Shown: positions 17,495-58,314 of the stretch, in pieces | Position numbering within the stretch: position 1 is the first letter of the stretch | How the letters are laid out: each line of letters opens with the position of its first letter | DNA from: Nitrospirota bacterium | GTDB lineage: Bacteria > Nitrospirota > Thermodesulfovibrionia > Thermodesulfovibrionales > UBA9159 | Assembly (NCBI GenBank): GCA_963699545.1 | Contig: CAVOUE010000006.1 | Span: 320,001 to 384,000 of the forward strand | Direction of reading: 5' to 3' | DNA: 64,000 nucleotides | The notes under the pieces: generated by a model | The model's input: only the letters and a program-made list of their open reading frames with translations | Told to the model about the DNA's origin: nothing | The model's database searches: none | Translations under genes and position numbers: made by a program

Positions 17495-18513
17495 CTTCCT
17501 CCCCTCGCCAGCGTCTCTTTCAGTATTTCCTCAAGGAGAGAAGGAAAATCGAGACCGGACAGCCGTGCGATCTTCGGCAGGAGACTGGTCTCTGTCATCC
17601 CCGGGATGGTATTCACCTCCAGAACACAGGAGTTGCCCTCATCATCCACAATGAGGTCAACCCTCGTGGCACCCGTACAACCCAGGGCCAGATGCGCTGA
17701 AAGGGCGATCCTCTCTGCCTTGTGCAGGGTCTCCGAGCGCACCTCGGGAGGAAGGATATAGTCGGTCATGCCCGGCGTGTATTTTGCCTCATAGCTGTAA
17801 AACTCAAGCTTCGGCCTCACCTCAACCGAGCCGAGTATCTTCCCATTGAGGATCCCCACCTGTATCTCCCTTCCTCGGATAAACTTCTCTATGATCACCC
17901 TCTCCCCAAACCTAAGGGCAGTCCCCATCGCAGCATCTATGGAAGATTCTTCTTTCACGATACTCACTCCAATGCTGGAGCCTTCAGTGGCCGGCTTTAT
18001 CACCCACGGCATAGCGAAAGCAATTCTCAATGTTGAGTTTTGAATTTTGAGTGAAAAATGTTTTCTTGAACGTCGAACGTCGAACTTTGCTGCCTCAGGC
18101 GGCTCGTTCTCTCCAGCGAATCCACCCGAATGCGGACCGGGGCGGGGACCTTGAACGGTCACGAACGGTGCAACAGGAATTTTATGATACAGGAAGGCCT
18201 TCTTAGATGCCTCTTTGTCCATGGCGAGGGCTGATGCAAGAACGCCTGAGCCGGTATAGGGAATTCCGAGCACCTCCAGGAGCCCTTGAATGGAGCCGTC
18301 TTCCCCGTATCCTCCGTGAAGGATAATGAACGCGATCTCAATCCCCTCCCTCTTCAGCACTGCACAGATGTCGGCACCGGCGTCAATGGCAACGGCATTG
18401 TAGCGGAGGCCCTTCAATGTATTAAGCACCGCTGTCCCGCTTTTCAGAGAGACCTCTCTTTCGGCAGAAATGCCGCCCATAAGGACACCGATCCTCTTAC
18501 CCGTTATCGGCAC
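17491..18513 (-). CDS. ddl: D-alanine--D-alanine ligase with a repeat-derived internal insertion
   Basis: [34 protein letters not shown] and EVNTIPGMT motifs; extra segment at about 18025-18156. Confidence 0.97.
18032..18156. repeat. Composite heptamer/palindrome element in frame within ddl
   Basis: GTTGAGT-TTTGAAT-TTTGAGT (18032-18052); TTGAACG-TCGAACG-TCGAACT (18066-18086); 18082-18156 is homologous to 25724-25768. Confidence 0.75.
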
Positions 18514-19459
18514 TGCCGAACCTCCCCACAATCCTTATCTCCGGTTCCAGTACTGCCCCGAAGGCCTTCATCACCCTTTCCTTCACTTCCTCCATCAACC
18601 CCAGGAAGTCCGCCGCCTTCCCATTACCCTTATTGATAAGGAAATTCGCATGGAGGCTGCTCACTTCCACATCGCCCCTCCTCATTCCCTTGCATCCGGC
18701 CTCATCAATGAGCCTGCCTGCATGGGCGCCAGGGGGATTCTTGAATACACATCCCGCAGAAAACTGGGATACGGGCTGTTTCTGCACTTTTTCCCGGAGG
18801 AAATCACCCACCCTTTTCGCCACGTTCCGTGGGTCTTCCTTTTCAAATCTCACATTCGCGCTAAGGACGATCGTCCCTTCAGGGATGGCCGACCGCCTGT
18901 AACCGAACCCGAGGTCGTCCCTGCCGATGGAGAACACCTTGCCCCTGATATCGATAACGGTCACTGACTCCACACTATCTCCGATCTCCTGTCCGAAAGA
19001 ACCGGCATTTCCGCGGAGAGCGCCCCCCATGAGACCGGGGATGCCTGCCAGCCCTTCTATACCTCCATACCCGTGGGCCATGCCAAGATTCACCAGTTTC
19101 TGAAGCGGGGTGCCTGCCTCCACAAAGAGCCTCACCTCATCGGCACTTTCTTCAATGGTCTCTATGTGATTAAGCATAACCGTAGAGATGACCGCCCCCT
19201 GTATCCCGTGATCGGAGACCAGGAGGTTGCTGCCTCCTCCCACGGGCATCATAGTGATGCTTTCATCCTTCAGGGCTATCAACAGGTTCTTCAGGGAAGG
19301 TATGTTTTTCGTGATCACATAGAAGTCGGCGGGACCGCCGATCCTGAGGGTTGTGTGGTCCTTCATTGACTCATCGGCAAACACATCCCCCACGAAGACG
19401 TCCGCACCGAATATCTCCTTCATCCTCTTGTCGGACAACTGCTGGGTCATCACCTTCAT
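18497..19459 (-). CDS. murB: UDP-N-acetylenolpyruvoylglucosamine reductase
   Basis: [36 protein letters not shown] and HANFLIN motifs. Confidence 0.97.
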
Positions 19460-20851
19460 CCTTCGCCCTGCATCCTCTTCAGGAGTTCTTCACCGGCCTT
19501 CCAGACATCACCGGCGCCGATGGTCAGGAACAGGTCATGGGGTCTCAGCCTTTTCATGATGGTTTCCGCAAGCATGTTCCTGTCGGTGAGAGAGACCACA
19601 TCCTTGTGCCCGCTCTCCTTTATCGCCTTTACCACGGCGCCCGCGTTCACCCCCTCTATGGGCTTTTCACCGGCGCGGTAGATATCCATCACGAAGAGGA
19701 CATCGGCATCTGAAAAAGAATTCCCGAACTCATGGAGGAGGTCCCTTGTACGGGTGTATCGGTGGGGCTGAAAGAGCACAAAAACCCTTCCCGTTTTGCC
19801 GTCGGAACAAGTCAGGGACTCCTGCGCCGCCTTCAGGGTTGCCCGGATCTCTGCAGGATGATGCCCATAGTCGTCAAAGAACTTGATGCCATCCGCCTCA
19901 CCCTTGAACTCGAATCTCCTCTGTATACCGCTGAAACCCTGCAACGCTTCCCTTATTCTCGGGAATTCAACCTTCAGTTCCATGGCAACGATGATGCTCG
20001 CGAGGCAGTTGAGGATGCTGTGCATCCCGGGCATCGGGAGGAGAAAACGTCCCATGTCATTTCCTTTGTACTTCACATCAAAGCTCACGGACAGGAATCC
20101 CTTTTCCACGTTGGTAGCAAGAACATCCGCATCTCCTGAAAGGCCGTACGTGATATATCTTCTGTGCACCCTGGGGAGGATCTCGCGGATGAGTTCATTT
20201 TCGATGCAGAGAATGGAGAGACCGTAAAAGGGAACCTTATTGATGAAAGAGACAAAGGCATCCTTCAGGGCGTCCATTGTTCTGAAGAAGTCCATATGTT
20301 CCCTGTCGATATTTGTCACCACCGCAATGGTGGGGGTAAGCTTGAGGAATGATCCGTCACTCTCGTCCGCCTCCGCAATGATGAAGTTCTCCCTTGCCGA
20401 GACGGGCGTTGCTTCCCGTTGCCATGAGTTTACCGCCGATCACCACCGTCGGATCAAAGCCGGCATGACCGAGGATGGTGGCGATGAGGGAAGTAGTAGT
20501 GGTCTTACCGTGCGCTCCGGCTATGAGTATCCCGTACTTTAATCTCCCCAGCTCGGCGAGCATCTCAGCCCTGGGGATCACCGGGACAGACCTTTCCCGC
20601 GCGGCAACCACCTCAGGATTTTCGACCGAAACGGCGGATGAGATCACGACCACATGAGCGTCGTTGATGTTTTCCGGTCTGTGGCCTATGAAAACCTTTA
20701 TACCGAGATATCTCAGCCTCGTCACGGTGTCGGACTCCTTCAGGTCAGAGCCGGTCACTTCATATCCCAGATTATGCAAGACTTCCGCGATCCCGCTCAT
20801 GCCTATGCCTCCGATACCCACAAAATGAATGGTCCTGTATCGTTCAAACAT
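19456..20851 (-). CDS. murC: UDP-N-acetylmuramate--L-alanine ligase; apparent +1 frameshift near 20387
   Basis: [11 protein letters not shown] and GAHGKTTTT; removing one A restores [22 protein letters not shown] and FQPHRYTR motifs. Confidence 0.95.
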
Positions 20852-22021
20852 TTTTCCTCGGTCCGTCCGCCGCCCCTGCCGTGCCAGCGCCTTTCCTGTC
20901 CCCCGATCTATGCCCGGCGATCGCCGTATTCTTTATCAGACTCATCACGATCTCCACGATCTTCTGCGCGGCATCAGGCCTTCCGAGGGACCTGCTTGAC
21001 CCCTCCATCTCGGAGCGTATTCCGGCATTGTCAAAAAGATCTCTTATGTTCCTTGCAAGGGTTTCCGAATCGAGCTCGTGGTCAAGAATGACCCGGGCAG
21101 CACCCATCTCGGAAAGCCTTCGGGCGTTCAATTCCTGGTGATTGCCTGCTGCATGGGGATAGGGGACAAGTATTGCGGGCCTGCCCACGGCGGTCAATTC
21201 GGCCAGGGTGGTAGCTCCGGCCCTGGATACCACGATATCCGCCACTGCGTAAGCCTCAGGCATCTGATGGATGAATGCCGCCACCGTGCCCTTGATCCCC
21301 CACTTCCGGTATGTTCTCCCTCACGACGTCATAGTCGCCTTTCCCCGTCTGATGGAGAAACTGGATCTTTTCCCTGATATCGCTGATGCTGGAAAAGGCT
21401 CCGCAGACCGCGTTATTGATCTTTCTCGCTCCAAGGCTCCCTCCAAACACAAACACGGTGAACCTGCCTCTCTCGAGACCGAAGAGTTCATATGCTGACT
21501 GTCTGCTGGCGTTCAGTATCTTCCGCCTCACCGGATTCCCGGTTATATAGGTCTTGTTCCTCGGGAAAAAAGAGAGGCTCTCATGGTAGGTCACACAGAC
21601 GATATCAGCAAAACGGCCGAGGATCTTGTTGGCGAGCCCCGGCACTGAGTTCTGCTCCATGATGAGCGTGGGTATTCTGAGCAGGGGTCCCGCAAATGCC
21701 GGAGCAAAGGATGCATAACCGCCGAGGCCGATCAGTGCATCAGGTTTCAGCTCCTTCAGCATCACGTAGGAGTCATAGAGGGAAAAAACCGTTTTTATCC
21801 CGGCCCTGGCCTTCTTCATGAGCGATCTCCCCGCAATTCCTTCAGCCTTCAAGTACCGAATGGGGTACCCTTCCCCGCGGGACGATAGACGCCTCGATGC
21901 CGTGCTCCGTCCCAATAAAGATCACCTCTGTGGACCCGTCCACTCTCTTCAACTCCTCGGCTATGGCAATCCCAGGGAAGAGATGTCCTCCCGTCCCCCC
22001 GCCCGCCAGCACTATCTTCAC
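20844..22021 (-). CDS. murG: Lipid II GlcNAc transferase; two apparent +1 frameshifts (about 21875 and 21315)
   Basis: GTG 22021 gives [17 protein letters not shown]; later frames give [33 protein letters not shown] and HQELNA. Confidence 0.95.
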
Positions 22022-23235
22022 AAATTCCCCCGACCATTCGCTCTTCCGTAACGGCTCAGCGCGTACCCGCGACCGTATACCGACACCATCGCTTTTTTCT
22101 TCTCGATGAGCCCCTCTGTCTTGTCAATAACTCTCCGCACCTCATCCCCCCTGGAGAGCCTCAGGAGCAGTCCCACGGCCACCATGTTCATCAGGAGGGA
22201 GGAGCCGCCATAGCTGACAAAGGGAAGGGGAAGCCCCTTTGTGGGAACAAGCCCTGTGGTGACGCAGAAGTTAATCAGCGCCTGAAGCGCGATCATCATC
22301 GAAAGACCCGACGCAAGATAGTATCCGAAGGGTTCCTTTGTCCTGTTTGCGATAGAGACACCCCTCAGGAACATCAACAGAAAGAGGCAGACGACGAAGC
22401 CTGCGCCGATAAAGCCAAGCTCTTCCCCCACAAGGGAAAAGATGAAATCCGTGTGGGATTCGGGGAGGAAGGCGAGCTTCTGCTTGCTCTCTCCCAGGCC
22501 TATCCCCTTGACACCGCCGCTCCCGAGGGCAATGAACGACTGTACAAGCTGGAATCCCGAGCCCTGGGAGTCTTTCCATGGATCGAGAAACGCGAGTATC
22601 CTCTTCAACCGGTAAGGCTCCATGGCGAGTTTTATAGAGACGGGTACCAGCAAAAGACCGAGCATCATGACATACCGCAGGCGTATGCCGGAGAGAATCA
22701 GCATCGTAACAGTAAGGATACAGAGGCTCATGGCGGCGCCAAAATCAGGCTGCTTAAGGAAGACCGCCTGGAAGAGTCCCATTATGCCGACAGGGACGAG
22801 GAACGAGATGATACTGTCGGTCTTATAGGAAGGCATGGACATGTACTTCGCAAGGAATATGACCATGGCGAGCTTCACCAGCTCAGAGGGCTGGAACGTG
22901 GACGGCCAGAGCCTGATCCACCTTCTCGCCCCGCCGGCGCTGATCCCGACCTTGGGGATAAAGACAAGGATAAGGAGTATGAACGAAAATACCAGCAGGG
23001 GGATCGCCGCTCTTTTCAGAAGCCCGGGGTTGGTCCTGTAAGCAATGTACATGAAGGTCGAACCCATGATCATGGTAAAGATATGCCTCTTGAAGTAAAA
23101 GAAGGGGGTGACATTCTTTTTCGCAAGAACAGGGGTAACCACGGAAGTGGAGCTGTAGATCATGATAGAACCAAAAATGACAAGGACAACCGTTATGAGG
23201 AGAAGCCACCGGTCATGGCAACGGTTGTTCACCAT
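22018..23235 (-). CDS. ftsW: SEDS peptidoglycan polymerase FtsW
   Basis: [29 protein letters not shown] and PFVSYGGSS motifs. Confidence 0.97.
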
Positions 23236-24696
23236 CTAGGATAGCTCCGCGACAATCTTCTTGAACTGCTGCCCCCTGTCTTCGAAATCCCTGAACATAT
23301 CAAAGCTGGCGCATGCAGGGGAAAGGAGGACCACGTCCCCTCTCTTCGCCAGCTCCCTCGCCCTCTCCACCGCATCGCGCAGGTCAGAGGCAAGAACCGT
23401 ATCCGTCAGGTCACCCAGGGCAGCCCTGATCTTTTCGGCCGCTTCACCGATGAGGACCAGTGCCTTCACCTTTTCCCGTACAAGAGGTCTCAGTTGTCCG
23501 AAATCACCCGCCTTATCCCTGCCACCTGCGACAAGGATGACGGGTTCAAGGAATCCCTCGAGGGACTTCATTACGGCACCCACGTTGGTCCCCTTGGAGT
23601 CGTTCATATATCTCACTCCCTCCAGTTCCCTCACAAATTCAAGCCGATGTTCAAGGCCGGAGAATTCATGGAGTGCAGTCACGACAGCATCGGGGCTGCA
23701 CCCTGCAAGGAGAGCCATGGCCGAAGCGGCCATGGCATTCTCCAGGTTATGGACCCCTTTAATCCTGATCTCATCAGCATGGATTAGTGCTGAACGTTGA
23801 GCAACGAGTGTTGAGTCAGGAAAGTGACCGTAAAGTCTTCCCTCCCTTAGGTATATCCCATTCACCTCTTTATTGCGGCTAAAATAGAAGATGCGCGGTT
23901 TCTCACCCCTCACTCTCAACTTCCCTTTTTCAATTTTCTGCACTTCTGGATCATCAGCGTTCAGCACAAGAAAGTCATTTTCGCCCTGATTCCTGAAGAT
24001 GGCGGCCTTTGCGTTACTGTATTCGTCCATGGAATGATACCTGTCCAGATGATCGGGAGTTATGTTCAGGAGCGCAGCCCCCGTGGGCCTGAACTCATCG
24101 ATGGATTCCAGCTGAAAACTCGACACCTCCACAACTACAAAGTCAGGGGTCGAGTGTTGAGTGCCGCCCGATGAGTTCCCATTGCTCTTTACCCCTGACT
24201 CGCTACGCCTCACGGCCTTATGAATTTCCTCTGTCAGCGCGTTGCCGATATTGCCGCCCAGGAGGGTACTGAACCCTTCGCTCCTGAGCATTACGTCAAG
24301 AAGCGTCGTGGTAGTGGACTTACCGTTGCTGCCGGTGACCGCCAGAAACGGTATCTGACCTCCGGCTTCATGCTCCCAGCCTCTGGTCATCTCGTATGCA
24401 AGTTCAAGCTCTCCGATGATCTTAAGCCCCTTTTCCCTTGCCTTCGCTATAGGCCCGATCTCCAGCGAGACCCCCGGACTGACCACCACAAGGTCGGTCC
24501 CGTTCATCCTCTCGGGATACCCGCCGAGGCAGAGCTTCACCGAGGGAGAAAGCCGCTGAACGTATTCGCTGAGCTCCGCTTCGGGTTTCCTGTCCGTGAC
24601 CGTGACATCGGCTCCGGAGTCCGACAGCAGGTTCGCTGCGCCCACTCCGCTCCTGCCGAGGCCGAAGATGAGTATTTTTTTACCCCTTGTTTCCAC
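23236..24696 (-). CDS. murD: UDP-MurNAc-L-Ala--D-glutamate ligase with several small insertions
   Basis: GLGRSG, VTGSNGKSTTT, EVSSFQL, NDSKGTN and LLSPACASFDMF motifs. Confidence 0.97.
   Translation of the reverse strand: METRGKKILIFGLGRSGVGAANLLSDSGADVTVTDRKPEAELSEYVQRLSPSVKLCLGGYPERMNGTDLVVVSPGVSLEIGPIAKAREKGLKIIGELELAYEMTRGWEHEAGGQIPFLAVTGSNGKSTTTTLLDVMLRSEGFSTLLGGNIGNALTEEIHKAVRRSESGVKSNGNSSGGTQHSTPDFVVVEVSSFQLESIDEFRPTGAALLNITPDHLDRYHSMDEYSNAKAAIFRNQGENDFLVLNADDPEVQKIEKGKLRVRGEKPRIFYFSRNKEVNGIYLREGRLYGHFPDSTLVAQRSALIHADEIRIKGVHNLENAMAASAMALLAGCSPDAVVTALHEFSGLEHRLEFVRELEGVRYMNDSKGTNVGAVMKSLEGFLEPVILVAGGRDKAGDFGQLRPLVREKVKALVLIGEAAEKIRAALGDLTDTVLASDLRDAVERARELAKRGDVVLLSPACASFDMFRDFEDRGQQFKKIVAELS
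24141..24216. repeat. Inverted heptamer tracts in frame within murD
   Basis: AGTCAGGGGT (24141-24150) / ACCCCTGACT (24191-24200) perfect 10-bp inverted repeat within 7-periodic sequence; encodes RRSESGVKSNGNSSGGTQHSTPD. Confidence 0.65.
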
Positions 24697-25786
24697 CGGA
24701 TTCCTTTGCCTCCGCCTTTGCGTTCTCCTTTGCCTTATGTTTTTTCGCGTATTTGCCGGACTTGGTTTTCGCCTTCTTCTTCGTTATCTTTTTCTGAGCC
24801 TGTTTGCCCGGCGCTTCCTTCACTTCCGAGGTCTTCACACTGTAGGAAGCCGGACGAACAGAGGATTTATAATCAGACTTCGTGAAATACATCACCGGGT
24901 CTTCCTTTCCGTTCATGATGGCAAAGCCTTTCTCCATCAATACTTCCGATTCCTTCCATAATGTTCCCCTGCTCGGCGCACCCAGCAATGCAGCAATAAC
25001 CGTCTCATTTCCCTGCTCACTGGCACAAACAAAACAGTGTTTCGCCTCCCTCGTATAGCCCGTCTTGCCGCCGAGGATTGTCTCGTCAGCCCAGAGAAGT
25101 CTGTTGCTGTTCTTGATAAAGATGGACCTGCCATTCTCCGTGGAGATACGGCTCGCCTTGGTGTTGATAATCTCCCGGACAAGAGGATATCTGAGGGCAT
25201 GCCGCAGCATCCTGGCAAGGTCATACGCCGTGGTGTACTGACCATGTCCCGGCAATCCGGTTGAATTGACAAAATAGCTGTCGGACATTCCCAGTGCGAT
25301 CACCTTCTGATTCATAAGTTCCACAAACTTCTCCTCTGAATCTGCCACCGCCTCTGCCAGGGCAAAGGCCGCATCATTGGCGGATTTAATAAGCGCTGCG
25401 TTCAGGAGCGTCTCGACCGATACTTTCTCTCCTGTCTTGAAATTCGCCTTGACGGGTGAGACACCGGCAGCCCGCTCGCTTATGGTGACCGTATCAGCAG
25501 GGTTCAGCCGGTCAAGGGCTATCATGGCAGTCATGAGCTTCGTAGTACTTGCGGGGGGGAGTTTCAGGTTCGGGTTTTTTCCGTAAAGGATCCTCCCCGT
25601 GGACGCCTCCATCACCACCGCGGACTTGGAACTGATCTCGGCAGCGTATGATGTCAAACAGAATGCGTGAAACGTGAAGAGTAAAAAGAAAATGAACAAC
25701 GGGATGTTTCCTTTTTGATCATGGAACTTTGTCGCCTCGGGCGACTCGCCGGGGCGAGAACTTTGAACGTTGAACTGTTGCTTCAT
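24680..25786 (-). CDS. Peptidase S11 family D-alanyl-D-alanine carboxy/endopeptidase with Lys-rich tail
   Basis: PASTTK (SxxK), SAN (SxN) and GGKTGYT (KTG) motifs; ATG 25786 just after the mraY stop. Confidence 0.9.
   Translation of the reverse strand: MKQQFNVQSSRPGESPEATKFHDQKGNIPLFIFFLLFTFHAFCLTSYAAEISSKSAVVMEASTGRILYGKNPNLKLPPASTTKLMTAMIALDRLNPADTVTISERAAGVSPVKANFKTGEKVSVETLLNAALIKSANDAAFALAEAVADSEEKFVELMNQKVIALGMSDSYFVNSTGLPGHGQYTTAYDLARMLRHALRYPLVREIINTKASRISTENGRSIFIKNSNRLLWADETILGGKTGYTREAKHCFVCASEQGNETVIAALLGAPSRGTLWKESEVLMEKGFAIMNGKEDPVMYFTKSDYKSSVRPASYSVKTSEVKEAPGKQAQKKITKKKAKTKSGKYAKKHKAKENAKAEAKESGGNKG
25724..25775. repeat. Palindrome/heptamer element in the 5' coding region of the S11 peptidase
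   Basis: GTCGCC-TCG-GGCGAC and TCGCC-GG-GGCGA hairpins flanked by GAACTTT / TTTGAAC-GTTGAAC heptamers. Confidence 0.75.
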
Positions 25787-25788
25787 TT

Positions 25789-26871
25789 TCACCTCACCTT
25801 CAATGTTGTAAGGCTTAAGAGGGCAAGCACGATCCCCACGATCCAGAACCTGACGATCACCTTGGGTTCCGGCCATCCCTTCAATTCGAAGTGGTGATGG
25901 ATCGGCGCCATCTTAAATATCCTTTTCCCTGTCATTTTAAATGATGCCACCTGAAGAATGACCGATAAGGTCTCTATCACGAAGATCCCACCCACCAAAG
26001 CGAGCACGATCTCGTGTTTTGTTATTACCGCCAGCGTCCCCAGGGTGCCGCCAAGGCCCAGCGACCCCACATCACCCATGAAGACATCGGCAGGATATGA
26101 GTTATACCAGAGAAATCCCAGGGCTGCGCCGAGCAGTGCTCCGCAAAAGACAGTAAGCTCGCCTGTACCGGGAAGGTAGAGCACCTGGAGATACTGCGCA
26201 AGGTTCTTGTTCCCGGAAATATAGACCAGGGCTCCATTGGCCAGCACCGCGATGCTTACAAGGCCTGTGGCCAGGCCGTCGATACCGTCGGTGAGATTCA
26301 CCGCATTGGATGAGCCCACGATGACAACAATGGAGAACGGGATGTAGAACCAGCCTAGGTCGAACAACCACTTCTTAAAGAACGGAATGCTCAGTACATC
26401 ATTGTAAGGATCCTTGGGGTTCATATAGAGGAAGACGCCGATAAGAAGCGCCAGGAGGAGCTGCGAACCGAACTTGTACCAGCCCCTCAGTCCTCTATGG
26501 TTCTGCTTCATCACCTTAAGGTAATCATCCACAAGACCTATGGCTCCGAACCCTACGAGGGAAAGGAGCATTACCCAGATATACATGTTCCTCAGATCAC
26601 CCCACAGGAGCACAGAGAGGACCACGGATCCTATGATGAGAATCCCTCCCATGGTGGGCGTACCGGACTTGACAGCATGCGTCCCGGGCCCGTCATCCCT
26701 GATCTGCTGTGTCAGGCTCAGTCGCCTCAGCCGCGCCACGATCCAGGGGCCGAAGACAAAAGTGATCAGCATCGCGGTCATGATAGCAACAGCCGTCCTG
26801 AAGGTGATATATCTGAATACATTCAGGGGAGAAAAAACATCGCGAAGGCTGAAGAGGAGACTATAGAGCAT
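25789..26871 (-). CDS. mraY: Phospho-N-acetylmuramoyl-pentapeptide transferase
   Basis: KSGTPTMGG, NAVNLTDGIDGL, FMGDVGS and MAPIHHHFE motifs. Confidence 0.98.
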   Translation of the reverse strand: MLYSLLFSLRDVFSPLNVFRYITFRTAVAIMTAMLITFVFGPWIVARLRRLSLTQQIRDDGPGTHAVKSGTPTMGGILIIGSVVLSVLLWGDLRNMYIWVMLLSLVGFGAIGLVDDYLKVMKQNHRGLRGWYKFGSQLLLALLIGVFLYMNPKDPYNDVLSIPFFKKWLFDLGWFYIPFSIVVIVGSSNAVNLTDGIDGLATGLVSIAVLANGALVYISGNKNLAQYLQVLYLPGTGELTVFCGALLGAALGFLWYNSYPADVFMGDVGSLGLGGTLGTLAVITKHEIVLALVGGIFVIETLSVILQVASFKMTGKRIFKMAPIHHHFELKGWPEPKVIVRFWIVGIVLALLSLTTLKVR

Positions 26872-28306: not shown

Positions 28307-28311
28307 GGACT

Positions 28312-46150: not shown

Positions 46151-46369
46151 GGAATTCACCTCCTTTCAATTTTTTTTTCGTCCTGAAGTTGTCTATACAC
46201 AAGATTTATGCCAAGGGGAAAGAAGCACAACAAAAGAAGTTTGAGTCGCAGAATCAAGGGGTTCCGGGCATGTTCTTTTTGCGTGGTTCGGTCCGGAGAA
46301 CTCTGCTGTTCCCATTTAGGAAATATATTCCTTTTTTGGGGAAGGCTGCAGTTTACATTGTCAAATGCA

Positions 46370-46993
46370 TCACTTCCTGACCCAGTTTCCGTCAGAGCTC
46401 TGAATCCACCACCCCTTCTTGGCAGAATCCCGCCGTATAGACGCAAATTGTTCAGTGGCCTGGGGCATGACCTGTTTAAGGTTCTCCTCGGTTTCAGGTA
46501 CCCTATTGATCCGTATAATCGCCCTCGCCATGCCGTTGATCACTGTCCTCCTGTTTGCATTTTCCATCTCAACGATATTCCTGTCAGCAGGAGAAAGTGT
46601 CTTCTCCCTCTCCATGAGCATCCCCTTATTCCCTTCACCCACAGCCCCGCTGTCCCTCAGCCTGTCGGTATCGGCTATCCTTGCGCCCATTTCCCTGTAT
46701 GCATTCACCACATCCGGCATCTTCTTCACGATCTCTGAAATCTTCTCAGAAAGTCCTGCTTCCTGCGCATAGGCAGAGGGTACCAGTTCAAAAAGTATCG
46801 AACTCTGAGGCTTGCCCTCGGGTTTAGGTTCGCGGTTCTTCTCCTCAGGAGCCATCAACTCTTTCTCCAGTGCTTTGTAAGCCTCCTTTACGTCTTTTTC
46901 GGGAAAGTAGATGTTCACAGTGATCACGGCACATGATGCAACAACGAAAAACAGTCCAAAGGTGACAAACGTAATGCTCCTTTTCATAGCCAT
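46370..46993 (-). CDS. YdbL/DUF1318 family lipoprotein with YnbE-like N-terminus
   Basis: Lipobox VASC; ITVNIYF; GAVGEGNKGML, ENANRR and GWWIQ..DGNW motifs. Confidence 0.8.
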   Translation of the reverse strand: MAMKRSITFVTFGLFFVVASCAVITVNIYFPEKDVKEAYKALEKELMAPEEKNREPKPEGKPQSSILFELVPSAYAQEAGLSEKISEIVKKMPDVVNAYREMGARIADTDRLRDSGAVGEGNKGMLMEREKTLSPADRNIVEMENANRRTVINGMARAIIRINRVPETEENLKQVMPQATEQFASIRRDSAKKGWWIQSSDGNWVRK

Positions 46994-47030
46994 TCCTCCC
47001 TTGTGCGTTATTTGAATTCCCAATCCCTCT

Positions 47031-50000: not shown

Positions 50001-50255
50001 AAGCCGCCCTGACATAAATCCCGGGGGATTATTGACGACAATATCATGGAGGTTTATTTCTCCTCCAGGGCTGAAAGAGATATCCCCTATGGTAACGCTC
50101 TGGCCGAAGAGCACGGTCGCCTTTTGGGAAATTTTCTGCACGAATGTCTTCTTGAGGTCGCGATAGCGGAAATAACTGATGCCGATAAAAAAAATTATGA
50201 GAACTGCGAAGGTCGCAGAGGTTATTTTGAGAACCTTTTTCCCGGTTGGCGTCAT
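47031..50255 (-). CDS. AsmA-like / YdbH-like large periplasmic beta-taco protein
   Basis: N-terminal TM plus AsmA-type start (LHDIVVNNPPGF), ~1000 aa of amphipathic beta-strands, FGGKLNG motif; upstream of the ydbL-like gene. Confidence 0.7.
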   Translation of the reverse strand: MTPTGKKVLKITSATFAVLIIFFIGISYFRYRDLKKTFVQKISQKATVLFGQSVTIGDISFSPGGEINLHDIVVNNPPGFMSGRLLRVKRLALGPRWRELVRGRFSFRDIEVRSPELTLITGEKGGMNVSDELKSFLSKKGTTKYQIDELRIRSGTVSFDNSLMTMGRDIDLSMKNLSSREDARTLLSGALSYAGNAVQIEGWAHLNSADKHYNVSFSADDLSFSAFKKILERYRVDAERVRAALKVNAEGDAVKGCRVTSRMRFKEGGFLPFYKDKRGVRLESDAFYDNRESSFIVNDLSLYQDNVSLMHLKGSFMDIGKHPSYVADVTIGKIDLSLFNIIKGTEIRGEVTSGGVRIKGSPGNRVSEVSGAIRLRGGAVRSSDIHIEKADAEITFSTGTEMSVNTVLSAKILSLRGYGADIPVDASLSLKARGGPERMATTSDIHLSSVSLKTQDGTSLLMDRMDSSVEGTLVHGALFAGKGTVGMKGITFGDYKIPSFNGSLYVDYRKGLIAIRDLKLNSGEARASVGRIDVKRHERQSAWSVEIKDMSALYPAREFRVDNTDIVLNLRTDKKAVSGEIALSSGNITFQGIPARVTSGSVRFDENDFSLSLPLAEIAGGRASLSAKGKVSRGPFPLNADIHAGGIDLGVLAGASQFNKLSYAASGTLEHAAFNGTMDSPESLQGKILIGTKNLSLVKKDNKKTIVKGAGLDAEIICKGRDCGFRTDMAAGSIRAAASGEVKRFAEKERVVTMKALLPETKLTDIRTSLWDIFPEGLLYGGLDGYLSSDVAMEHSDHGMKATGTIRLANVLLQGENGEYSVGAINGIVPFQYDTAHHAQNITGMPSFEPSEFTALSRHYSREFVEDGYQKITINSLRYGFRILDAVNIWVKQEENGLNIGRLSANMFGGKLNGSARVDFSDGLTYRAGILLEGLSLAQLCEEIEPLKGYISGKVDGTATVKGSGAGVSRLIGKADFRSYSSGGEKTKVSREFLQKIGGPSLKAYIEDRSFDKGVMGLYLQNGFVIFRELEISHRNMVGVTDLSVKVAPFNNRIEINHLLWTVTEAAQRAGDKQ

Positions 50256-50386
50256 ACTTTATCTCTCTGTTAAACGAAGTGCACTGCGAAAAAATCCCAT
50301 TTATCCGATTATACAGCAGATTAAAGAGAAAGACACGGTCGAGATGATGAATGTCAGGAAGCGCTGTCGATCGAAGATAAGTGAAC

Positions 50387-50426
50387 TTGACAGTGCTTCT
50401 CTTATGTGTTACACTGTCTTACATAA
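50387..50426 (+). promoter_or_regulatory. Promoter and imperfect palindromic operator of the RHH/PIN TA pair
   Basis: TTGACA-N17-TACACT; TTATGT...ACATAA inverted arms spanning the -10. Confidence 0.65.
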
Positions 50427-50441
50427 AGAAAGGAGGGCACA

Positions 50442-50660
50442 ATGCGCGACACGATTACCATACGGCTGCCCGAGAAACTCCAGCGAGACCTGAATAGGGT
50501 TGTAAAAGCCGAAAAGACATCGAAAAGTGACGTGATCAGGGATGCCATAGAGCGTTACATCGCGCTCAAACGGTTTCAGCAACTGAGGAAGAAAGTCCTT
50601 CCTTTTGCCGAAGCAGAAGGCCTGGTCACCGACGAAGACGTTTTCAAGGCGATCTCTTGA
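50442..50660 (+). CDS. Ribbon-helix-helix (CopG) antitoxin
   Basis: TITIRLP...SKSDVIRDAI; AGGAGG RBS; overlaps the PIN gene. Confidence 0.85.
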   Translation: MRDTITIRLPEKLQRDLNRVVKAEKTSKSDVIRDAIERYIALKRFQQLRKKVLPFAEAEGLVTDEDVFKAIS

Positions 50661-51052
50661 GGATCGTGCTTGACACAAATGTAATTGTGGCTGCTTTTGC
50701 GACCCGCGGTCTGTGTGCAGAGGTATTTGAAGTTTGCGCTTCCAACCATGCCATCGTGATGAGCGAACATATCCTTGCTGAGGTCAGTAGTGCATTTCGA
50801 AAAAAGGTAAAACTTCCCGAGGAGATCGTCCATGACGTAACCGGCTATTTGAGAGATATAGCAGAAACGGTGAAACCGGACCATATTGACACCTCTGCTT
50901 GCAGAGACAAGCATGATCTCCCCGTCATTGGAACGGCAACGAAAGGGAATGCTGATTTCATTGTTACGGGAGATGCTGATCTATTGGCACTCAAAAGCTA
51001 CCGGGGGATTGATATTATAACCCCTCGGGAATTATGGAATCGTCTGAGATAA
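50657..51052 (+). CDS. PIN-domain toxin (VapC-like, PIN_3 type)
   Basis: RIVLDTNV, CRDKHD, FIVTGDADLL and IITP motifs. Confidence 0.9.
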   Translation: MRIVLDTNVIVAAFATRGLCAEVFEVCASNHAIVMSEHILAEVSSAFRKKVKLPEEIVHDVTGYLRDIAETVKPDHIDTSACRDKHDLPVIGTATKGNADFIVTGDADLLALKSYRGIDIITPRELWNRLR

Positions 51053-51322
51053 AGAATCATCGGCCCTGTTTGAATAACACCTCATAATTGTCAAGATGCT
51101 TCGATTTGTCAGTTGCTGTGAGAACACCGTTCCGATCCTCACGACCTTCGCACGTTTGCTTCTGGATGTAGCCGCTGACCCTATTCTTCCCCCGAAACTG
51201 CATAATAGCAGGAGTACTCCACAATCGTCGGAAGACAAACATAATGGACTTCTCGGGAAGAATGTCTCACAGGCAAATCACTGGCAACTCATGGACAAAA
51301 CTGACGGACAACTACCGACTCC

Positions 51323-54300
51323 CTACTCCTTCCCGTCCCTGTGATATTCATTCAGAGACTTTATATGGATCTTCCTCTTCAGGAGCATCTCGATCGCTTT
51401 TACCACGGCATTGGCGCCGGTCAGCGTCGTGGTGAAGGGCACGCGGTACTGGAGGGCGCTCTGCCGGATGGAGGAGGAGTCCTTCTGTGCCTGAGCGCCG
51501 CTCACCGTGTTGACCACAAAGCTTATCTCCTTATTCTTGATAAGGTCCACGATATGGGGTCTTCCCTCCATTACCTTATTCACCACTCCCACCTCGATCC
51601 CTTTATTCCTGAGGTGCTCGGCAGTCCCCCGCGTGGCGATGACATCAAAGCCCATCTCCAGGAATTTCTGCACGATACGGCACGTGCCGGGCTTGTCCTT
51701 GTCCTTCACGCTGATGAATATCTTCCCGGACAGGGGAACTTTGTTACCGCTGGACTCCTGGGCCTTTGCATAGGCAAGACCGAAATCCTCATCGATCCCC
51801 ATCACTTCACCCGTGGACTTCATCTCGGGTCCGAGGATCGTGTCCACGCCGTGGAAACGGTCAAAGGGGAAGACCGCCTCTTTCACCGCCATATGCTTCA
51901 TCTCCCGCTCCGCGAGGAGGCCGAGTTCCTTCAGAGTCATTCCGCCCAGGATCTTTGCCGCCACCTTTGCCAGGGGAACCCCTGTGGCCTTTGAGACAAA
52001 GGGCACCGTCCTTGACCCCCTCGGGTTCACCTCGAGGATATAGATCTCTCCGTCCTTGACCGCAAACTGGATATTCATCAGGCCGACGACATTCAGTTCC
52101 TTTGCCAGGGCCCTGGTCTGTCTCTTTATCTCATCCACGATGGGACTGCTGAGGGAGTAAGGAGGCAGGGAGCATGCCGAGTCCCCGGAGTGGATCCCTG
52201 CCTCTTCGATATGCTCCATAACGCCGCCGATGATGACGTCGGTGCCGTCAGCTATGGCATCCACATCGACCTCGATGGCGTCTTCAAGATACTTGTCGAC
52301 CAGCACCGGGTGTTCGGGAGAGGCCTTCACCGCCCGCCGCATATAGTCAGCAAGGGATTTTTCATCGTACACGATCTCCATGGCCCTTCCTCCGAGGACA
52401 TAGGAAGGCCTCACCATGACGGGGTATCCGATGTGCGCTGCAATCTCCAGCGCCTCATCAGGAGACATCGCCGTGTCGCTCTCGGCCTGTTTCAGGTTGA
52501 GCTTATGGAGAAGTTCCCTGAACCTCCTCCTGTCCTCTGCCCGGTCGATGGAGTCGGGGGATGTGCCGAGGATATTCACCCCTTCCCTTTCCAGGGGAAC
52601 CGCGAGCCTGAGGGGCGTCTGCCCACCGAACTGGACGATCACTCCCTCCGGCTTTTCGGTCTCTATGATACTGAGGACGTCCTCTATGGTGAGGGGTTCG
52701 AAATAGAGCCGGTCGGCGGTATCATAGTCGGTGCTCACTGTTTCCGGGTTACAGTTGATCATGATCGTCTCATACCCCAGTTCTCTGAGGGCAAAAACCG
52801 CATGGACGCAGCAGTAGTCGAACTCGATCCCCTGCCCTATCCTGTTGGGACCGGAGCCGAGGATGACCACCTTTTTTCTGTCGGTGGGGTTTGATTCGGA
52901 TTCAACCGCAGGGTCAGAGGATTCGGGAGTGAGAGGGTTCTCTCTTTGCCGTGACCCTATCTGATAGAAAGGTCTTTCATACGTCGAATAGAGATACGGG
53001 GTATATGCCTCAAACTCTGCAGCGCAGGTATCCACCATCTTATACACCGCATGCATACCGTACCGCTTCCGGAGATGGCGTATCTCCTCCTCCTTTACCT
53101 TCAGAAGCCCTGCAATGGTCCTGTCAGAGAAGCCGTTCTCCTTTGCTTCACGCAATAAGGGTTCAGAGATCTGAACGTTCGGGTCCCGCAGGCCATCGGG
53201 ATTGACCCCTTGAACCCCTGAACTCTTTATCCTCTCTTCCACGGCCAGTATCTTTCTTATGTGGTTCAGGAACCACGGGTCTATTCCGGTAAGTTCATGT
53301 ATCTCGCTCACAGGCATGCCGTTCCTGAACCCCTGGGCCACATGCCATATCCTCTCGGCATTGGGGATCTTCAGCTTTGCCTTGAGCTCATCGGAAGTGA
53401 CCTGCACTTCTTCGAATCCGTAACTCCCGATCTCGAGGCTCCTTAAGGCCTTCTGGAGAGATTCGTAAAGGTCCTTCCGATGGACATGGCCTCTCCCACT
53501 GACTTCATCTGTGTGGTGAGGGTCGCGTCCGCCTCGGGGAATTTCTCGAAGGCAAAACGGGGGAACTTCGTCACCACATAATCGATCGTCGGCTCAAAGG
53601 ACGCAGGGGTCTCCTTTGTAATGTCATTGGGAATCTCATCCAGGGTAAGTCCCACCGCCAGTTTCGCAGCTATCTTTGCGATGGGAAACCCCGTGGCCTT
53701 GCTCGCGAGGGCTGAACTCCTCGAGACCCTCGGGTTCATCTCTATGACGACCATCCTCCCGTTTTCAGGACTGACCGCGAACTGGATGTTCGATCCCCCC
53801 GTATCCACACCGATCTCCCGGATAATGGCGATGGAGGCATCCCGCATCCTCTGGTATTCCTTGTCGGTGAGGGTCTGGGCAGGGGCGACGGTAATGGAAT
53901 CCCCGGTATGGACCCCCATGGGATCGAAGTTCTCGATGGAGCAGATGATCACCACATTGTCCTTCATGTCCCGCATCACTTCCAGTTCATATTCCTTCCA
54001 GCCGATGACCGATTCCTCCACGAGGACCTGGTGAACAGGGCTGAGTTTCAGTCCGTTGTCCAGGAGCCCCATATACTCTTCCATGTTATAGGCGATGCCG
54101 CCCCCTGTCCCGCCCAACGTAAAGGAAGGCCTCAGGATCGCGGGAAACCCTATGCGATCAATGGCATCCAGTCCTTCCTTTAAGCTGCCCACATACGCCG
54201 ATTGCGGGACTTCAAGTCCTATCCTCTCCATGGCTTCCTTGAACAATTCGCGGTCCTCAGCCTTTTTTATCGCAGGGAGCTTTGCGCCGATGAGCTCTAC

Positions 54301-54636
54301 CTGGTATCTCCCGAGGACTCCTGACTCCGCAAGCTCCACCGCGAGGTTCAGGGCGGTCTGTCCGCCCATGGTGGGAAGCAGGGCATCAGGCTTCTCATTC
54401 GCTATAATGAGCTCAACCACCTCCACGGTAAGGGGCTCGATGTATACCGCGTCAGCCGTCTCAGGGTCGGTCATGATGGTGGCGGGGTTTGAGTTCACGA
54501 GCACTACCGTATAGCCCTCCTCCCGAAGGGCCTTGCACGCCTGTGTGCCGGAATAATCGAACTCGCATGCCTGGCCGATGACGATGGGTCCCGAACCTAT
54601 CAAAAGTATTTTCTTCAGGTCAGTTCTCTTCGGCAC
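51323..54636 (-). CDS. carB: Carbamoyl-phosphate synthase large subunit; apparent -1 frameshift near 53465
   Basis: [42 protein letters not shown] and MKSTGEVMG; adding one base restores [11 protein letters not shown]. Confidence 0.96.
53161..53225. repeat. Octamer tract plus hairpins in frame within carB
   Basis: TTGACCCC-TTGAACCC-CTGAACTC (53202-53225); GTTCAGA-GA-TCTGAAC and TCCCG...CGGGA hairpins. Confidence 0.6.
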
Positions 54637-54685
54637 GTTCACCTCTCATCGACAAAATATCCCTATCATCACGCTGAGTAGCCAT

Positions 54686-55312
54686 TTACACCATCCAGAC
54701 CGCATCAGGCAAAAGCCCGCTCAGTGAACTCTTCAGTTCGGCGATCATCGACTCGGCAGCCTGCCTCGCCCTGGCGCTGAAGATCACCGGCTTCTCCCCG
54801 CCGAAGTCCAGCTCCACCGCATAAAAATCTTCTGTCTTTCCGAATCCCGGTATGACCGTACCATGCTGGAGGGCAACCCTCTCCACAAGTTGCACGGCAT
54901 CCATATTTTCCGGTTGCATTGATATATGAACAAGCCGGATAGCAGTCAGCCCATCCAATAAATAGGACTTTGCACTGCCGCCGATCGTCCTTTTCAGAGA
55001 AAGGGTGACGGCCCTCTTCTCCCCGTCAAAAACCGCCTCGAGAGCCACTTCCCGGAAAAAATATAACCTGAAAATAATGAAAAGGACCGCAAATAGCAGT
55101 GCAACTGCCATCAGGTAAAGAGCAGATATCCTAAAGTAAAGCGCAAAAAAAAAGCTCAGCACCACGATCACAGCCCCTGCTGCGAGGCTCGATGCAAGCT
55201 CACGGTTGAAGATGCCGCTGTGGAGGACACTCCTGCGCTCTGTCTTAAAGGAGGATGTCTTCAGCACGACAGTATTGCCTCTCTTTTCGATGTGATACGG
55301 TTTCTCCTTCAT
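54686..55312 (-). CDS. Hypothetical membrane protein (two TM helices)
   Basis: 208-aa ORF co-oriented between the flavin reductase gene and carB. Confidence 0.7.
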   Translation of the reverse strand: MKEKPYHIEKRGNTVVLKTSSFKTERRSVLHSGIFNRELASSLAAGAVIVVLSFFFALYFRISALYLMAVALLFAVLFIIFRLYFFREVALEAVFDGEKRAVTLSLKRTIGGSAKSYLLDGLTAIRLVHISMQPENMDAVQLVERVALQHGTVIPGFGKTEDFYAVELDFGGEKPVIFSARARQAAESMIAELKSSLSGLLPDAVWMV

Positions 55313-55348
55313 TCAGGCAGTAAATGCAAAACTCAACACCCACAACTC

Positions 55349-55873
55349 TTATTTCTTGAAATAGACGATCCTGCTTCCACCGAGGTGGAGGGGGATATTT
55401 GCTTCCTCATCCCATAAGCCCTTTTCGACATATCGTTCATCCGCGTATGCGATACGGACCTTGCCGAAAAATGCATCACATTCCCCTGCATCAACGGTCT
55501 TCCATACCTTGCACTCAATATACCCTATGCATCCACCAATGACAGGAGGTTTCACCTTTATTGCACCGATTTTCTTCAATCCGGCCTTTTTGAACTTATC
55601 AGTATTTCTTCCGGAAGTTTTTCCACATATCCATAAAGCCTTCAGAAGCTTTTTTGTGGGGACGTTTATGACAAACTCTCTCGTCTGTCTTATCAGCCGG
55701 GCGGTATGACTTTCCTTTGACACGCAGACCATCACGATGGGCGGCTCCTCGCTCACGGGAGTGGCCCATGCACAGGTCATGACATTGGGCCTTCCTTCCT
55801 TATCGGCACTCGTCAGGAAGAAAGCCATCTTCGGATGGAGGAGGTGGTAGATGCCTGACGTGAATTCCTTCAT
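55349..55873 (-). CDS. Flavin reductase-like (flavoredoxin) protein
   Basis: PNVMTCAWATPVS.EPP, EFVINVP, CGKTSGRNTDKF and IECKV motifs; TGATG coupling to carA. Confidence 0.88.
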   Translation of the reverse strand: MKEFTSGIYHLLHPKMAFFLTSADKEGRPNVMTCAWATPVSEEPPIVMVCVSKESHTARLIRQTREFVINVPTKKLLKALWICGKTSGRNTDKFKKAGLKKIGAIKVKPPVIGGCIGYIECKVWKTVDAGECDAFFGKVRIAYADERYVEKGLWDEEANIPLHLGGSRIVYFKK

Positions 55874-57009
55874 CAGCATTCCCTTCCTTCGATCATCTCC
55901 CTGAACCTTGTGAACAGCATCACAGAATCATTCGGGCCCGGTCCAGCCTCGGGATGATGCTGCACAGAGAATATGGGCATTTCCACGTGGTGCATGCCCT
56001 CTTCCGTTCCGTCGTAGAGGTTCTTGTGCGTGAGCCTGGCCTGACCGTGAAGACTATTGATGTCAACACAGTAATTGTGGTTCTGGGAGGTGATCTCGAC
56101 CTTCCCTGAGGAGAGGTCTTTCACCGGGTGGTTTCCGCCGTGATGGCCGAACTTCAGTTTATAGGTCCTGCCCCCCATCGCGAGGCCCAATATCTGGTGA
56201 CCGAGACAGATCCCGAAAATCGGTTTCTTGCCCATGAGCTTCCGCGCATTCTCAATGGCATAGGTAACGGTCTCGGGGTCTCCGGGGCCGTTGCTCAGGA
56301 TTATCCCGTCCGGGTCCATTTCGAGGACCTTCTCCGCAGGTGTCTGAGCAGGCACAACCGTCACACCAAAGCCCGCTTCCACAAGGTTCCTCAAAATATT
56401 GAACTTGACCCCGAAATCATAGACGACCGCCTTAACCCCCCCCATCCCCCCCTTGGCAAGGGGGGGATGGGGGGGTTGGCACCACTTCCAGCATCCCTCG
56501 TTCCACTCGTATGTTTCTTTGGTGGTTACGTCCTTCACAAGATCGAAAGCTGATATCCCGGGATGTGCCCTCACCTTTGAAAGAAGACCGGTCGGATCCA
56601 CATCTGCGGTCGAGATGATCCCCATCTGGGCGCCGTGATTTCTCAAATGCCTCGTCAATCCCCTTGTGTCGATACCCTGAATGCCGACGACGTTATGCCT
56701 TTTCAGATAGTCAGTGAGTCCGAGGGACGAGCGCCAGCTGGAGGGAAAATCGCATGCCTCCTTCACAATAAACCCCTCCGCCTTGACCCCTCCGGCAGAC
56801 TCGATATCCTCTTCATTCACCCCGTAATTGCCTATCTGGGTGTAGGTCATGGTGACGATCTGGCCTCTATATGACGGGTCCGTGAGGATCTCCTGATATC
56901 CGGTCATGGAGGTGTTGAACACCACCTCCCCCATGGTCTCTCCCTCTGCGCCGAAGGACGTTCCTTCGAACACCGCGCCATCCGACAGCACAAGCAGCGC
57001 CTTATCCAT
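55873..57009 (-). CDS. carA: Carbamoyl-phosphate synthase small subunit
   Basis: [29 protein letters not shown] and [10 protein letters not shown] motifs. Confidence 0.98.
56434..56477. repeat. 44-bp near-perfect C/G palindrome in frame within carA
   Basis: AA-C8-AT-C7-TTG-G-CAA-G7-AT-G7-TT; encodes [13 protein letters not shown]. Confidence 0.85.
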
Positions 57010-58314
57010 TTATCTTCCCCTTGCATATGGTCGTTACAGGCATCCCTTGCAATGCCCAGCCTTCAAAGGGGGTATTCTTGCCCTTGGAAGCGAAAGCCTC
57101 CGCCGCCACCCGCCATCCTCTGTTAGGATCGATGATGGCAACATCTGCGTCAGAGCCAACCTTTAACGTCCCCTTGTTCAACTTCATTATCCGGGCAGGA
57201 TTCAGTGCCATCTTTTCTGTAAGCTGCGTCATGGTCAAAATTCCGTTATGAACGAGTCTGAGGCTTAATGACAGCGCGGTCTCAAGCCCTGATATGCCGG
57301 AGGGTGCCTTATCGAATTCCCTGAGTTTCTCGTCCCGGTGATGGGGGGCATGGTCCGTAGCGATGACATCAATGGTGCCGTCCCTCAGTCCTTCCTTAAT
57401 GGCGTCCACATCCCGCTGCGTCCTTAGGGGAGGATTCACTTTCGCATTGGTATCATAGCCTTTCACCGCTTCCTCTGTGATGCTGAAATAATGGGGGCAG
57501 GTCTCTGCAGTGACGCCCGTTCCTCTCTCCTTTGGCCTGTCGTATGAGTTGCACAGAGCCTGCCGTGGAAACATGGGCGATATGGAGCCTTCCACCGGTC
57601 AGTTCCGCAAGGATTATATCCCTTGCCACCATCACCTCTTCCGAGGCTGCAGGTATCCTGCTTAATCCGAGAGACTGTGGAAACCGTTCCCTCATTCATC
57701 ACCCCGCCGTCGGAGAGGTTGAGGTCTTCGCAGTGGGAGATAATCGGCACGATGAATACCTTCGAATATTCCAGAGCCCTTCTCATCAGAAGGCTGTTCA
57801 TCACCGGATGACCGTCATCGGAAAAAGCCACGCACCCCGCCTCGAACATCATTCCCATTTCGGCAAGTTCTTCGCCCTTCTGACCCTTTGTGATCGCGCC
57901 TATGGGAAAGACATGGCAAGCTCCTTCGGCATAGGCCTTTCGGAGGATGAACTCTGTAACGGTTTCATTATCATTCACCGGGTCTGTATTCGGCATACAG
58001 CAAACAGAGGTGAATCCGCCCTTCACCGCAGCCATGGTTCCCGAACTGATGGTCTCCTTGCCTTCAAATCCCGGTTCCCTCAGATGCGTATGCATATCGA
58101 CAAGCCCGGGAAGAACGTAAATCCTGTGGCGTCAACGACATGGGGTTTAGGGGTTGGGGGCTGGAGATCTTCTTTCTTCTTTTTTGCCAATCTCTGATAC
58201 CGTATTCCCAAACCCCTTTATCTTTCCGTTCTCGATCAACAGGTCGCCCACCCCGTCGATCCCCTGGGAGGGGTCTATGATATGGCCGTTCTCTATCAGT
58301 ATGCTATTATCCAT
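57002..58314 (-). CDS. pyrC: Dihydroorotase (type I); at least four apparent indels
   Basis: [15 protein letters not shown] start at 58314; [46 protein letters not shown] and SKGKNTPF are spread over several frames. Confidence 0.92.

Follow-up and report, generated by a model that had tools for sequence, protein, structure and literature searches.

Heptamer arrays predicted to lie in frame in variable loops of housekeeping enzymes of Thermodesulfovibrionales

The window analysed here is a 64 kb stretch of DNA (G000:C6:320001-384000; contig CAVOUE010000006.1 of assembly GCA_963699545.1) from the genome of a Nitrospirota bacterium, which comprises 3.04 Mb in 13 contigs with 52% G+C and is 87% complete. 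Its minus strand carries a cell-wall and division gene cluster, as well as pyrB-pyrC-carA-carB of the pyrimidine pathway. Among named CarA sequences, the closest relatives are metagenome-assembled Nitrospirae and Thermodesulfovibrionales, including Candidatus Sulfobium (80% identity) and Dissulfurispiraceae. Six of the encoded enzymes, Ddl, MurD, an S11-type peptidase, CarA, CarB and PyrC, have segments whose DNA was described in an initial annotation as degenerate tandem heptamers or octamers or as short palindromes (Table 1). Orthologs of Ddl, MurD, CarA and CarB were drawn from 30 related genomes, and in the alignments the segments coincided with loops of variable length. They are extra, lineage-specific loop peptides, as had been proposed. 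Judged from the open frames, they are predicted to be inserts that preserve the frame of unrelated housekeeping genes and are read through, and the proposal that new loop peptides are created in this way held. The repetition is a pattern of the DNA, neither of codons nor of the protein. The phenomenon extends beyond the window and spans the whole order Thermodesulfovibrionales.

Table 1. Insert segments and variable loops of the window (positions within the 64 kb; aa, amino acids; length ranges are those in the ortholog alignments)
Feature	Position	Strand	Basis
ddl loop insert, residues 128-174 (GPRPG...RIAFAM)	18010..18150	-	alignment to 29 relatives
murD variable loop 3 (DSTLVAQRSA)	23788..23817	-	ortholog alignment, 17-35 aa
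murD variable loop 2 (RRSESGVKSNGNSSGGTQHSTP)	24145..24210	-	ortholog alignment, 10-32 aa
murD variable loop 1 (RGWEHEAGGQ), short here	24355..24384	-	alignment of 28 relatives, 9-35 aa
S11-type peptidase, N-terminal region ahead of membrane helix	25709..25786	-	Tandem Repeats Finder and shuffles, DNA level only
carB site B insert, 20 aa, linker ahead of second ATP-grasp half	52904..52963	-	ortholog alignment, 12-62 aa
carB site A insert, 20 aa, degenerate octamer array of GGGGTCAA type	53165..53224	-	ortholog alignment, 3-29 aa
carA inter-domain linker insert, 16 aa, G/C-tract palindrome CCCCCCCATCCCCCCCTTG / CCAAGGGGGGGATGGGGGGG	56431..56478	-	alignment and genome copies
pyrC loop tract CAGCCCC CAACCCC TAAACCCC, ahead of conserved VIDATG strand	58140..58167	-	sequence; loops of relatives

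In Ddl, the loop between the anchors IPVAPF and PWVIKP has 51 amino acids, compared with 15-43 in the 27 relatives having both anchors. The DNA of its insert contains two degenerate heptamer arrays, TTCGACG in 2.6 copies and a CTCAAAA type in 2.9 copies, recorded by Tandem Repeats Finder (TRF) at 18033-18052 (7 nucleotides (nt) x2.9) and 18068-18085 (7 nt x2.6), together with a diverged copy of a GC hairpin core ('EPPEAAKF') that is treated below. Each window segment was tested against 2000 in-frame codon shuffles, and the ddl insert was periodic with P=0.003. An AlphaFold2 model of Ddl built from 22 sequences reached a mean predicted local distance difference test score (pLDDT) of 85.7, with values of 47-69 for residues 131-170 and 87-98 for the neighbouring blocks. 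The suggested mapping of inserts on AlphaFold models thus placed the Ddl insert in a low-pLDDT stretch, and failed for CarA, where 22 close relatives yielded a poor model (mean pLDDT 56) that is uninformative on the linker. At the site of the ddl insert, relatives carried (GGTTCAA)x4 (L014), (CGTTACG)x4 (L008), TCAGCGN and CACGAAT arrays (L007) or a G/C palindrome (L006).

In murD and carB the ranges first annotated each merged separate loops, three and two, respectively, although the segments themselves were real. The three MurD loops were only marginally periodic (P=0.027-0.042). Loop 1 is occupied by (GGGGTTA)n...(CAATCCC)x4 in G002, a genome of the same genus as the window, and by (AGTCAGG)x3 in L042. 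Loop 2 (P=0.04) is closed by a 9-nt inverted repeat, AGTCAGGGG / CCCCTGACT, at 24192-24200 and 24141-24149; L032, L033, L034 and L044 have inverted period-6 arrays (AAGGTT...AACCTT) in its place. The opposed orientation of tracts, annotated for murD and carB, was upheld for this loop. The DNA of loop 3 consists of the degenerate heptamers ACTCAAC ACTCGTT GCTCAAC GTTCAGC (P=0.027), and relatives showed (CCTTCAA)x4 (G002), (AACTCAA)x3 (G001) or (CACTTCN)x4 (L038). In the S11-type peptidase gene, the heptamers CAACAGT TCAACGT TCAAAGT are followed by the GC hairpin core TCGCCCCGGCGAGTCGCCCGAGGCGAC ('SRPGESPEAT'); TRF reported 25758-25780 (7 nt x3.1), and the codon-shuffle test gave P=0.0015. The claimed segments of ddl, murD, the S11 gene and carB hold the top-scoring tiles for periodicity of each gene. 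The C-terminal tail of the S11 peptidase (KAKENAKAEAKESGGNKG; 24703-24736) has a repeat of its own, CCTTTGCCTCCG, with period 12/6 and 2.8 copies.

Site A of carB was periodic (P=0.002; TRF 53205-53223, 8 nt x2.2) and is represented in relatives by (AAGGGGTC)x3 (G002) and (ACGGAGAC)x4...(CACCGCGT)x4 (L180). No significant periodicity was obtained for site B (P=0.14), a decayed homologue of the paired arrays (GGGGTCAA)n-spacer-(CCCTCGAA)x4 that G002 has at the same place. The carA insert was not periodic either (P=0.11) and is a near-perfect 40-nt palindrome. The description of the DNA as degenerate heptamers, octamers or palindromes hence stood for ddl, the S11 gene, carB site A, the carA palindrome and, marginally, murD, and periodicity was not confirmed for carB site B and carA. 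The CarA linker has 16 amino acids in this genome, 10 in many relatives and 6-61 overall. Its palindrome is common to the close relatives L091-L093, L097 and L098 at the same site, and G002 has (GAAGTCA)x4-25 nt-(CTCGTCA)x4 instead; G030 has (ATTTCGG)x4...(ATCCGCA)x4. Orthologs outside the order are without the segments: in a phylum-wide CarA search, among the matches listed (150 of 305), those of the large family f22, outside the order, span 1107-1110 nt, and those inside the order up to 1200 nt.

The pyrC tract is accompanied by two compensating frame changes within about 70 nt, near homopolymer runs; its translation is uncertain in this genome because the reading frame is interrupted to either side of it. 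In 69 relatives the same loop is a hot spot with many arrays and G/C palindromes. The genes murC, murG, carB and pyrC are each broken into at least two open frames (19456-21915, 51323-54642 and 57002-58371), probably by consensus indel errors of the assembly and not as pseudogenes.

The genome was searched with TRF for period-7 arrays of at least 2.8 copies, and ten triplet-shuffled genomes served as controls. Seventy-four arrays were obtained against 5.8 in the shuffles, and 33 against 0.0 at a stricter threshold. A count of perfect arrays only (at least 3 copies) gave 4 against 0; it is insensitive to degenerate arrays and was replaced by TRF. Among 754 kb of loci from 190 relatives, TRF found 144 period-7 and 58 period-8 arrays, against 11 of period 6 and 13 of period 9. 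Periodicity above shuffled controls was observed genome-wide and in most window segments, and neither of the two refuting conditions named in the initial annotation came true. Ordinary variation of loop length together with chance, or errors of metagenome assembly, could be argued from the short and degenerate tracts of the window, from carB site B and carA, whose periodicity is not significant alone, and from the several essential genes split in the assembly. Such an explanation is barely credible: the shuffle controls exclude chance, perfect 4-copy arrays occur in many separate assemblies, and the arrays keep the reading frame.

By position, 44 of 72 period-7 arrays were inside predicted genes, 22 were intergenic and 6 lay at gene edges. 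From reading the translations, without a family search, we take the hosts to include ribonucleotide reductase, BioA, FabF, QueA, AroC (three arrays), MnmA, BioF, YggS and HemH. The units are diverse, with 50 canonical units in 71 arrays of this genome and 93 in 143 arrays of the relatives. Contig C2 has, at about 10500-50600, tandem paralogs encoding large membrane proteins with C-terminal TPR repeats and many heptamer and octamer arrays. The arrays of these paralogs occupy loops between membrane helices, e.g., (ATTCACG)x5 read as HDSRFTIHDSRF, and a hairpin (CACAGAGA)3...(TCTCTGTG)3 is also present.

The arrays are concentrated at few sites of their host genes. For all loci one rule was applied, by which an array needs 3 or more units and no more than 2 mismatches, and 90-nt tiles of the remainder of the same genes were the controls; six loci identical to others were removed before counting. 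Arrays were present in 8 of 29 Ddl loops (control tiles 1/231), in 2/28, 0/28 and 5/29 of MurD loops 1, 2 and 3 (0/296), in 35 of 100 CarA linkers (9/1028) and in 4/27 and 10/27 of the CarB sites A and B (0/746). Over the four genes together, 10 of 2301 control tiles contained an array. Over about 100 genomes of Thermodesulfovibrionales, the same loops hold different arrays, often perfect 4-copy ones, in many separate assemblies.

Turnover at these sites is fast. The loci L102, L133 and L112 are 93-100% identical in the flanks, yet in the pyrC loop as well as in the CarA linker their inserts are unrelated. From public sequencing, one run with 0.07 of the sampled words, only the contig bridging the ddl insert was used; this metagenome contig of an about 91% identical relative has 91 other letters for the 151 between 18011 and 18163. 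L134 and L135 differ by 165 mismatches in 4173 aligned columns (96% identical) and by one indel of 21 nt. This indel, in the pyrC loop, comprises the three heptamers GGAGCAT GGAGCTC GGAGCAC and adjoins the native GAGCATG. Selection acts on the arrays, as an in-frame stop is avoided: in the CTCTGAYA octamer array of L128 and L129, the sole one of the 4 units with an in-frame TGA slot reads GGA.

Besides the tandem arrays, dispersed hairpins were found. The G/C-tract palindrome of carA belongs to a family with 7 genome copies, against 0.3 in shuffles. Three copies are in predicted genes, one of them in a 390-aa gene (C10:31723-32895) that presumably encodes MnmA. With a length of 40-47 nt the palindrome recurs in carA and pyrC of other genera, and it encodes a conserved PPxPP...GGxGG peptide. 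The GC hairpin core of 20-26 nt is present in the S11 gene, in a predicted 370-aa gene (C4:79082-80194), at about four further places and, diverged, in ddl; in the C4 gene, presumably encoding QueA, it lies in frame and adjoins another heptamer array. An octamer-armed hairpin occurs at unrelated places on C2 and C7 with different spacers. Dispersed behaviour is confined to these three, and none of them is linked to an enzyme.

These families raise the possibility that the inserts are non-autonomous mobile hairpins, related in kind to miniature inverted-repeat transposable elements, repetitive extragenic palindromic (REP) sequences or Rickettsia palindromic elements. They would be copied into single-stranded DNA by a trans-acting enzyme, e.g., an HUH/Y1 transposase, the arrays would be their arms, and selection would filter the in-frame survivors. 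Good folding of the inserts speaks for this, as CarA-linker inserts fold above shuffles with a mean z of -3.5 in sense and -4.3 in antisense. So do the swapping of whole inserts between near-identical relatives and the presence of two Y1 transposase genes in the genome. In the pyrC loop of L112, copies of a 9-nt direct repeat, AAGATAAAA, lie on either side of (CCATCAG)x4 and look like a target-site duplication. It is a single case: none was noticed when the other sites were inspected by eye, a dedicated search for flanking direct repeats not having been run. For CarA-linker inserts (L096-L162) the antisense strand, with G.U pairs where the sense strand has A.C, was the stabler in 25 of 31, a count overstated because the sequences are related to one another.

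We nevertheless regard mobile hairpins as a doubtful account of the inserts as a whole. In this genome no second copy exists of the heptamer inserts of ddl, murD and carB, the 143 arrays of the relatives fall into 93 unit classes, the arrays merge into native flanks, the observed indel is one of three internal units, and many arm pairs are non-complementary. One Y1 gene (IS200-like/RAYT-type; C3:267809-268141, locus L201, outside the window) has inverted copies of TAGGGACACATCCCATTTT on both sides and a REP of its own, the palindrome-bearing 12-mer GGGACACATCCC with 32 genome copies. Together they look like a classical pair of REP and REP-associated tyrosine transposase (RAYT), unrelated to the in-frame inserts; GGGACACATCCC was in none of the in-frame insert segments examined. 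The REP-associated TnpA is among the small genes that the initial annotation had proposed to test; the sole clear REP/RAYT pair belongs to a different repeat family. A reverse transcriptase was not detected either (no RVT_1 match), the 87% completeness of the genome leaving its absence unproven.

We lean, without great assurance, towards a local origin: the arrays would arise by slippage-type amplification, selection would retain the frame-preserving events in tolerant loops, and a small palindrome family would exist beside them. Single-copy inserts, diverse units, starts in native codons and the three-unit indel fit generation in cis, and they count against the trans-acting repeat-insertion process postulated in the initial annotation; nothing in the data requires a trans-acting writer. 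The native starts are seen in L014, where the native GTTCAAGGT of V-Q-G in ddl corresponds to (GGTTCAA)x4, and in carA, where L130 has (ACTCCAG)x4-ACTTAAA in the position of the native ACTCCTG-CCTTGAA. In pyrC loops of relatives, arrays of GAACTCN units terminate in native GAACTATTGA. Perfect arrays in relatives have mostly 4 copies, the expectation from one native unit plus three, which was taken as support for local generation.

Under local generation, units of 7 nt, less often of 8 or 6, would be amplified in place to tandem arrays of about 4 copies, most likely by strand slippage in replication or repair, and often helped by neighbouring arrays that pair as a hairpin. Within essential genes only gains or losses of whole codons would survive, i.e., three units of together 21 or 24 nt, possibly added in one step. 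Survivors would also need to be free of in-frame stops and to sit in a tolerant surface loop, a domain linker or an N-terminal region. Selection for frame, absence of stops and tolerance may therefore leave few permissive sites, which are refilled repeatedly by different arrays. The arrays would afterwards decay by point mutation or be replaced, and small dispersed hairpin families able to sit in frame would accompany them.

Several observations weigh against local slippage. The clean 21-nt step was seen once, in one pair. Slippage is not known to take a single unit to 4 in one event, and steps of single units would be lethal frameshifts in essential genes. Full replacement of inserts between genomes of about 95-99% identity is quicker than expected from simple slippage and decay, and could equally result from insertion or allele exchange. 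The units are non-random: 125 of 214 contain TCA or TGA, where 21% are expected, with TCA on the coding strands, and units of the types TCAGCNN, AAGGGGTC and ACTCNGA recur across unrelated loci and genomes. At least three dispersed families exist, plain slippage does not need the folding measured for the CarA linkers, and the direct repeat of L112 belongs on the same side. In addition, the relatives are not independent samples, and the gene calls behind the placement of the arrays are a crude set of our own (3065 genes, 82.5% coding).

Another possibility is an active process specific to the order, which may place cassettes able to form hairpins, each of about four units of 7 or 8 nt, in particular DNA contexts and rewrite them within a few percent of divergence. 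It might be due to a polymerase or a repair activity in which a register of 7 nt is built in, or to an enzyme of single-stranded DNA that has not been recognised so far. We consider this rather unlikely; if true, the writing of cassettes would be a natural source of new loops at domain boundaries of essential enzymes.

Retention for a function was also weighed. The arrays and hairpins could pause or regulate translation as mRNA hairpins, serve as flexible protein linkers or act as DNA binding sites for a protein that reads the repeats, and the hot spots would then mark the function. Going by the folds of these enzymes, and by the low-pLDDT stretch of Ddl, the inserts of Ddl, CarA and CarB are at domain linkers. 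The folding z-scores are significant, and the TCA/TGA bias of the units is without explanation. For intergenic TAACTGA repeats, a translational role has been proposed, according to PMC4679880. A general function is quite improbable all the same, as sequence, length and presence vary freely among close relatives (CarA linker, 6-61 amino acids) and many orthologs have no insert. Many copies, including those of the window, are decayed, and the arrays share no conserved peptide or structure.

Returning to local amplification, two further ideas on its course were rejected. Since MutS and MutL are both encoded, the arrays are not explained by a loss of mismatch repair. Complementary inverted arms are not a general rule, since several perfect pairs are non-complementary, e.g., (GAAGTCA)x4 and (CTCGTCA)x4 in carA of G002. 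As a separate observation on repeats, a k-mer count gave about 22 copies of a CRISPR-like sequence, GTTTCAATCCACGCTCCCGCGCGGGGAGCGAC, genome-wide.

Essential genes are expected to exclude simple-sequence repeats with units other than multiples of three; here such repeats are tolerated, apparently translated to judge from the open frames, and quickly replaced. Over a whole order they recur in corresponding loops of enzymes for the cell wall and for pyrimidines, and so provide a natural record of where Ddl, MurD, CarA/CarB and PyrC accept insertions. If the arrays are generated locally, new loop sequence would be created by a mutational process and not by selection on the protein, and the order would offer a tractable system in which to ask why bacterial slippage favours units of 7 nt. 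In metagenome-derived Nitrospirota genomes the inserts may also mislead gene calling, the alignment of orthologs and the polishing of assemblies.

An excess of heptamers in bacteria is already known, as are the short tandemly repeated repetitive (STRR) sequences, the GGGAATC repeats and the TAACTGA repeats, all chiefly intergenic as described in PMC4679880 and PMC4692102. Heptamers are reportedly the most abundant long simple-sequence repeats (LSSR) of prokaryotes, and slippage has been proposed as their origin (Mrazek and co-workers 2007, quoted in PMC4679880 and PMC4692102). In the literature searched, no report was found on Thermodesulfovibrionia in which heptamer arrays return, in frame, to equivalent loops of orthologous essential enzymes. 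With the heptanucleotide LSSR, as far as these two sources describe them, our arrays share the few tandem copies of a 7-nt unit, the excess over other unit lengths and the proposed slippage. The described LSSR are mostly intergenic, with units of a multiple of three favoured in genes (PMC4679880), whereas 44 of 72 are in predicted genes here, essential enzymes are hit, and arrays recur at orthologous loops across an order. Of the features that define the LSSR and STRR class, at least 3 head-to-tail 7-nt units and an excess over chance and neighbouring periods were found, but neither a mainly intergenic position nor a restriction to few fixed units per genome.

Cyanobacterial STRR and the G-rich GGGAATC/GGGGAYT repeats of Xanthomonas and Nostoc are likewise tandem heptamers, often of 4 units, which at a given locus differ in length and sequence among close relatives; the analogy drawn to STRR in the initial annotation was apt, and so was that to Rickettsia palindromic elements. 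According to PMC4692102, these heptamer repeats have one or few fixed units per genome, compared with 50 classes in 71 arrays here, many of them translated by prediction. The TAACTGA repeats of marine Beggiatoaceae are heptamers of 2-6 copies with stops on one strand and the other strand translatable. The TGA/TCA enrichment of our units is similar, and some genomes have mixed arrays of other heptamers, but the TAACTGA repeats have one dominant unit and are nearly all intergenic, upstream of start codons; in Microcystis, 2 of 24 mapped TAACTGA sets were inside ORFs, in reverse orientation (PMC4679880).

Rickettsia palindromic elements resemble the present inserts as palindromic DNA in frame in unrelated metabolic genes that adds a peptide at fold-compatible positions. 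As summarised in PMC10969869, they measure about 150 bp and fall into ten conserved families, each of which encodes a peptide that is conserved too. The inserts here are mostly unique tandem arrays, and the sole one to act as a small family of this type is the G/C-tract palindrome of 40-47 nt. A REP/RAYT pair does exist in the genome, but its REP GGGACACATCCC is of another sequence family than the in-frame inserts. For a diversity-generating retroelement, the reverse transcriptase expected of it gave no RVT_1 match in the 87% complete genome. Phase-variable contingency loci, where gain or loss of single units turns a dispensable and usually surface-related gene on and off through its frame, differ as well: the hosts here are essential enzymes with an open frame, and the sole length change seen is one of 21 nt that keeps it.

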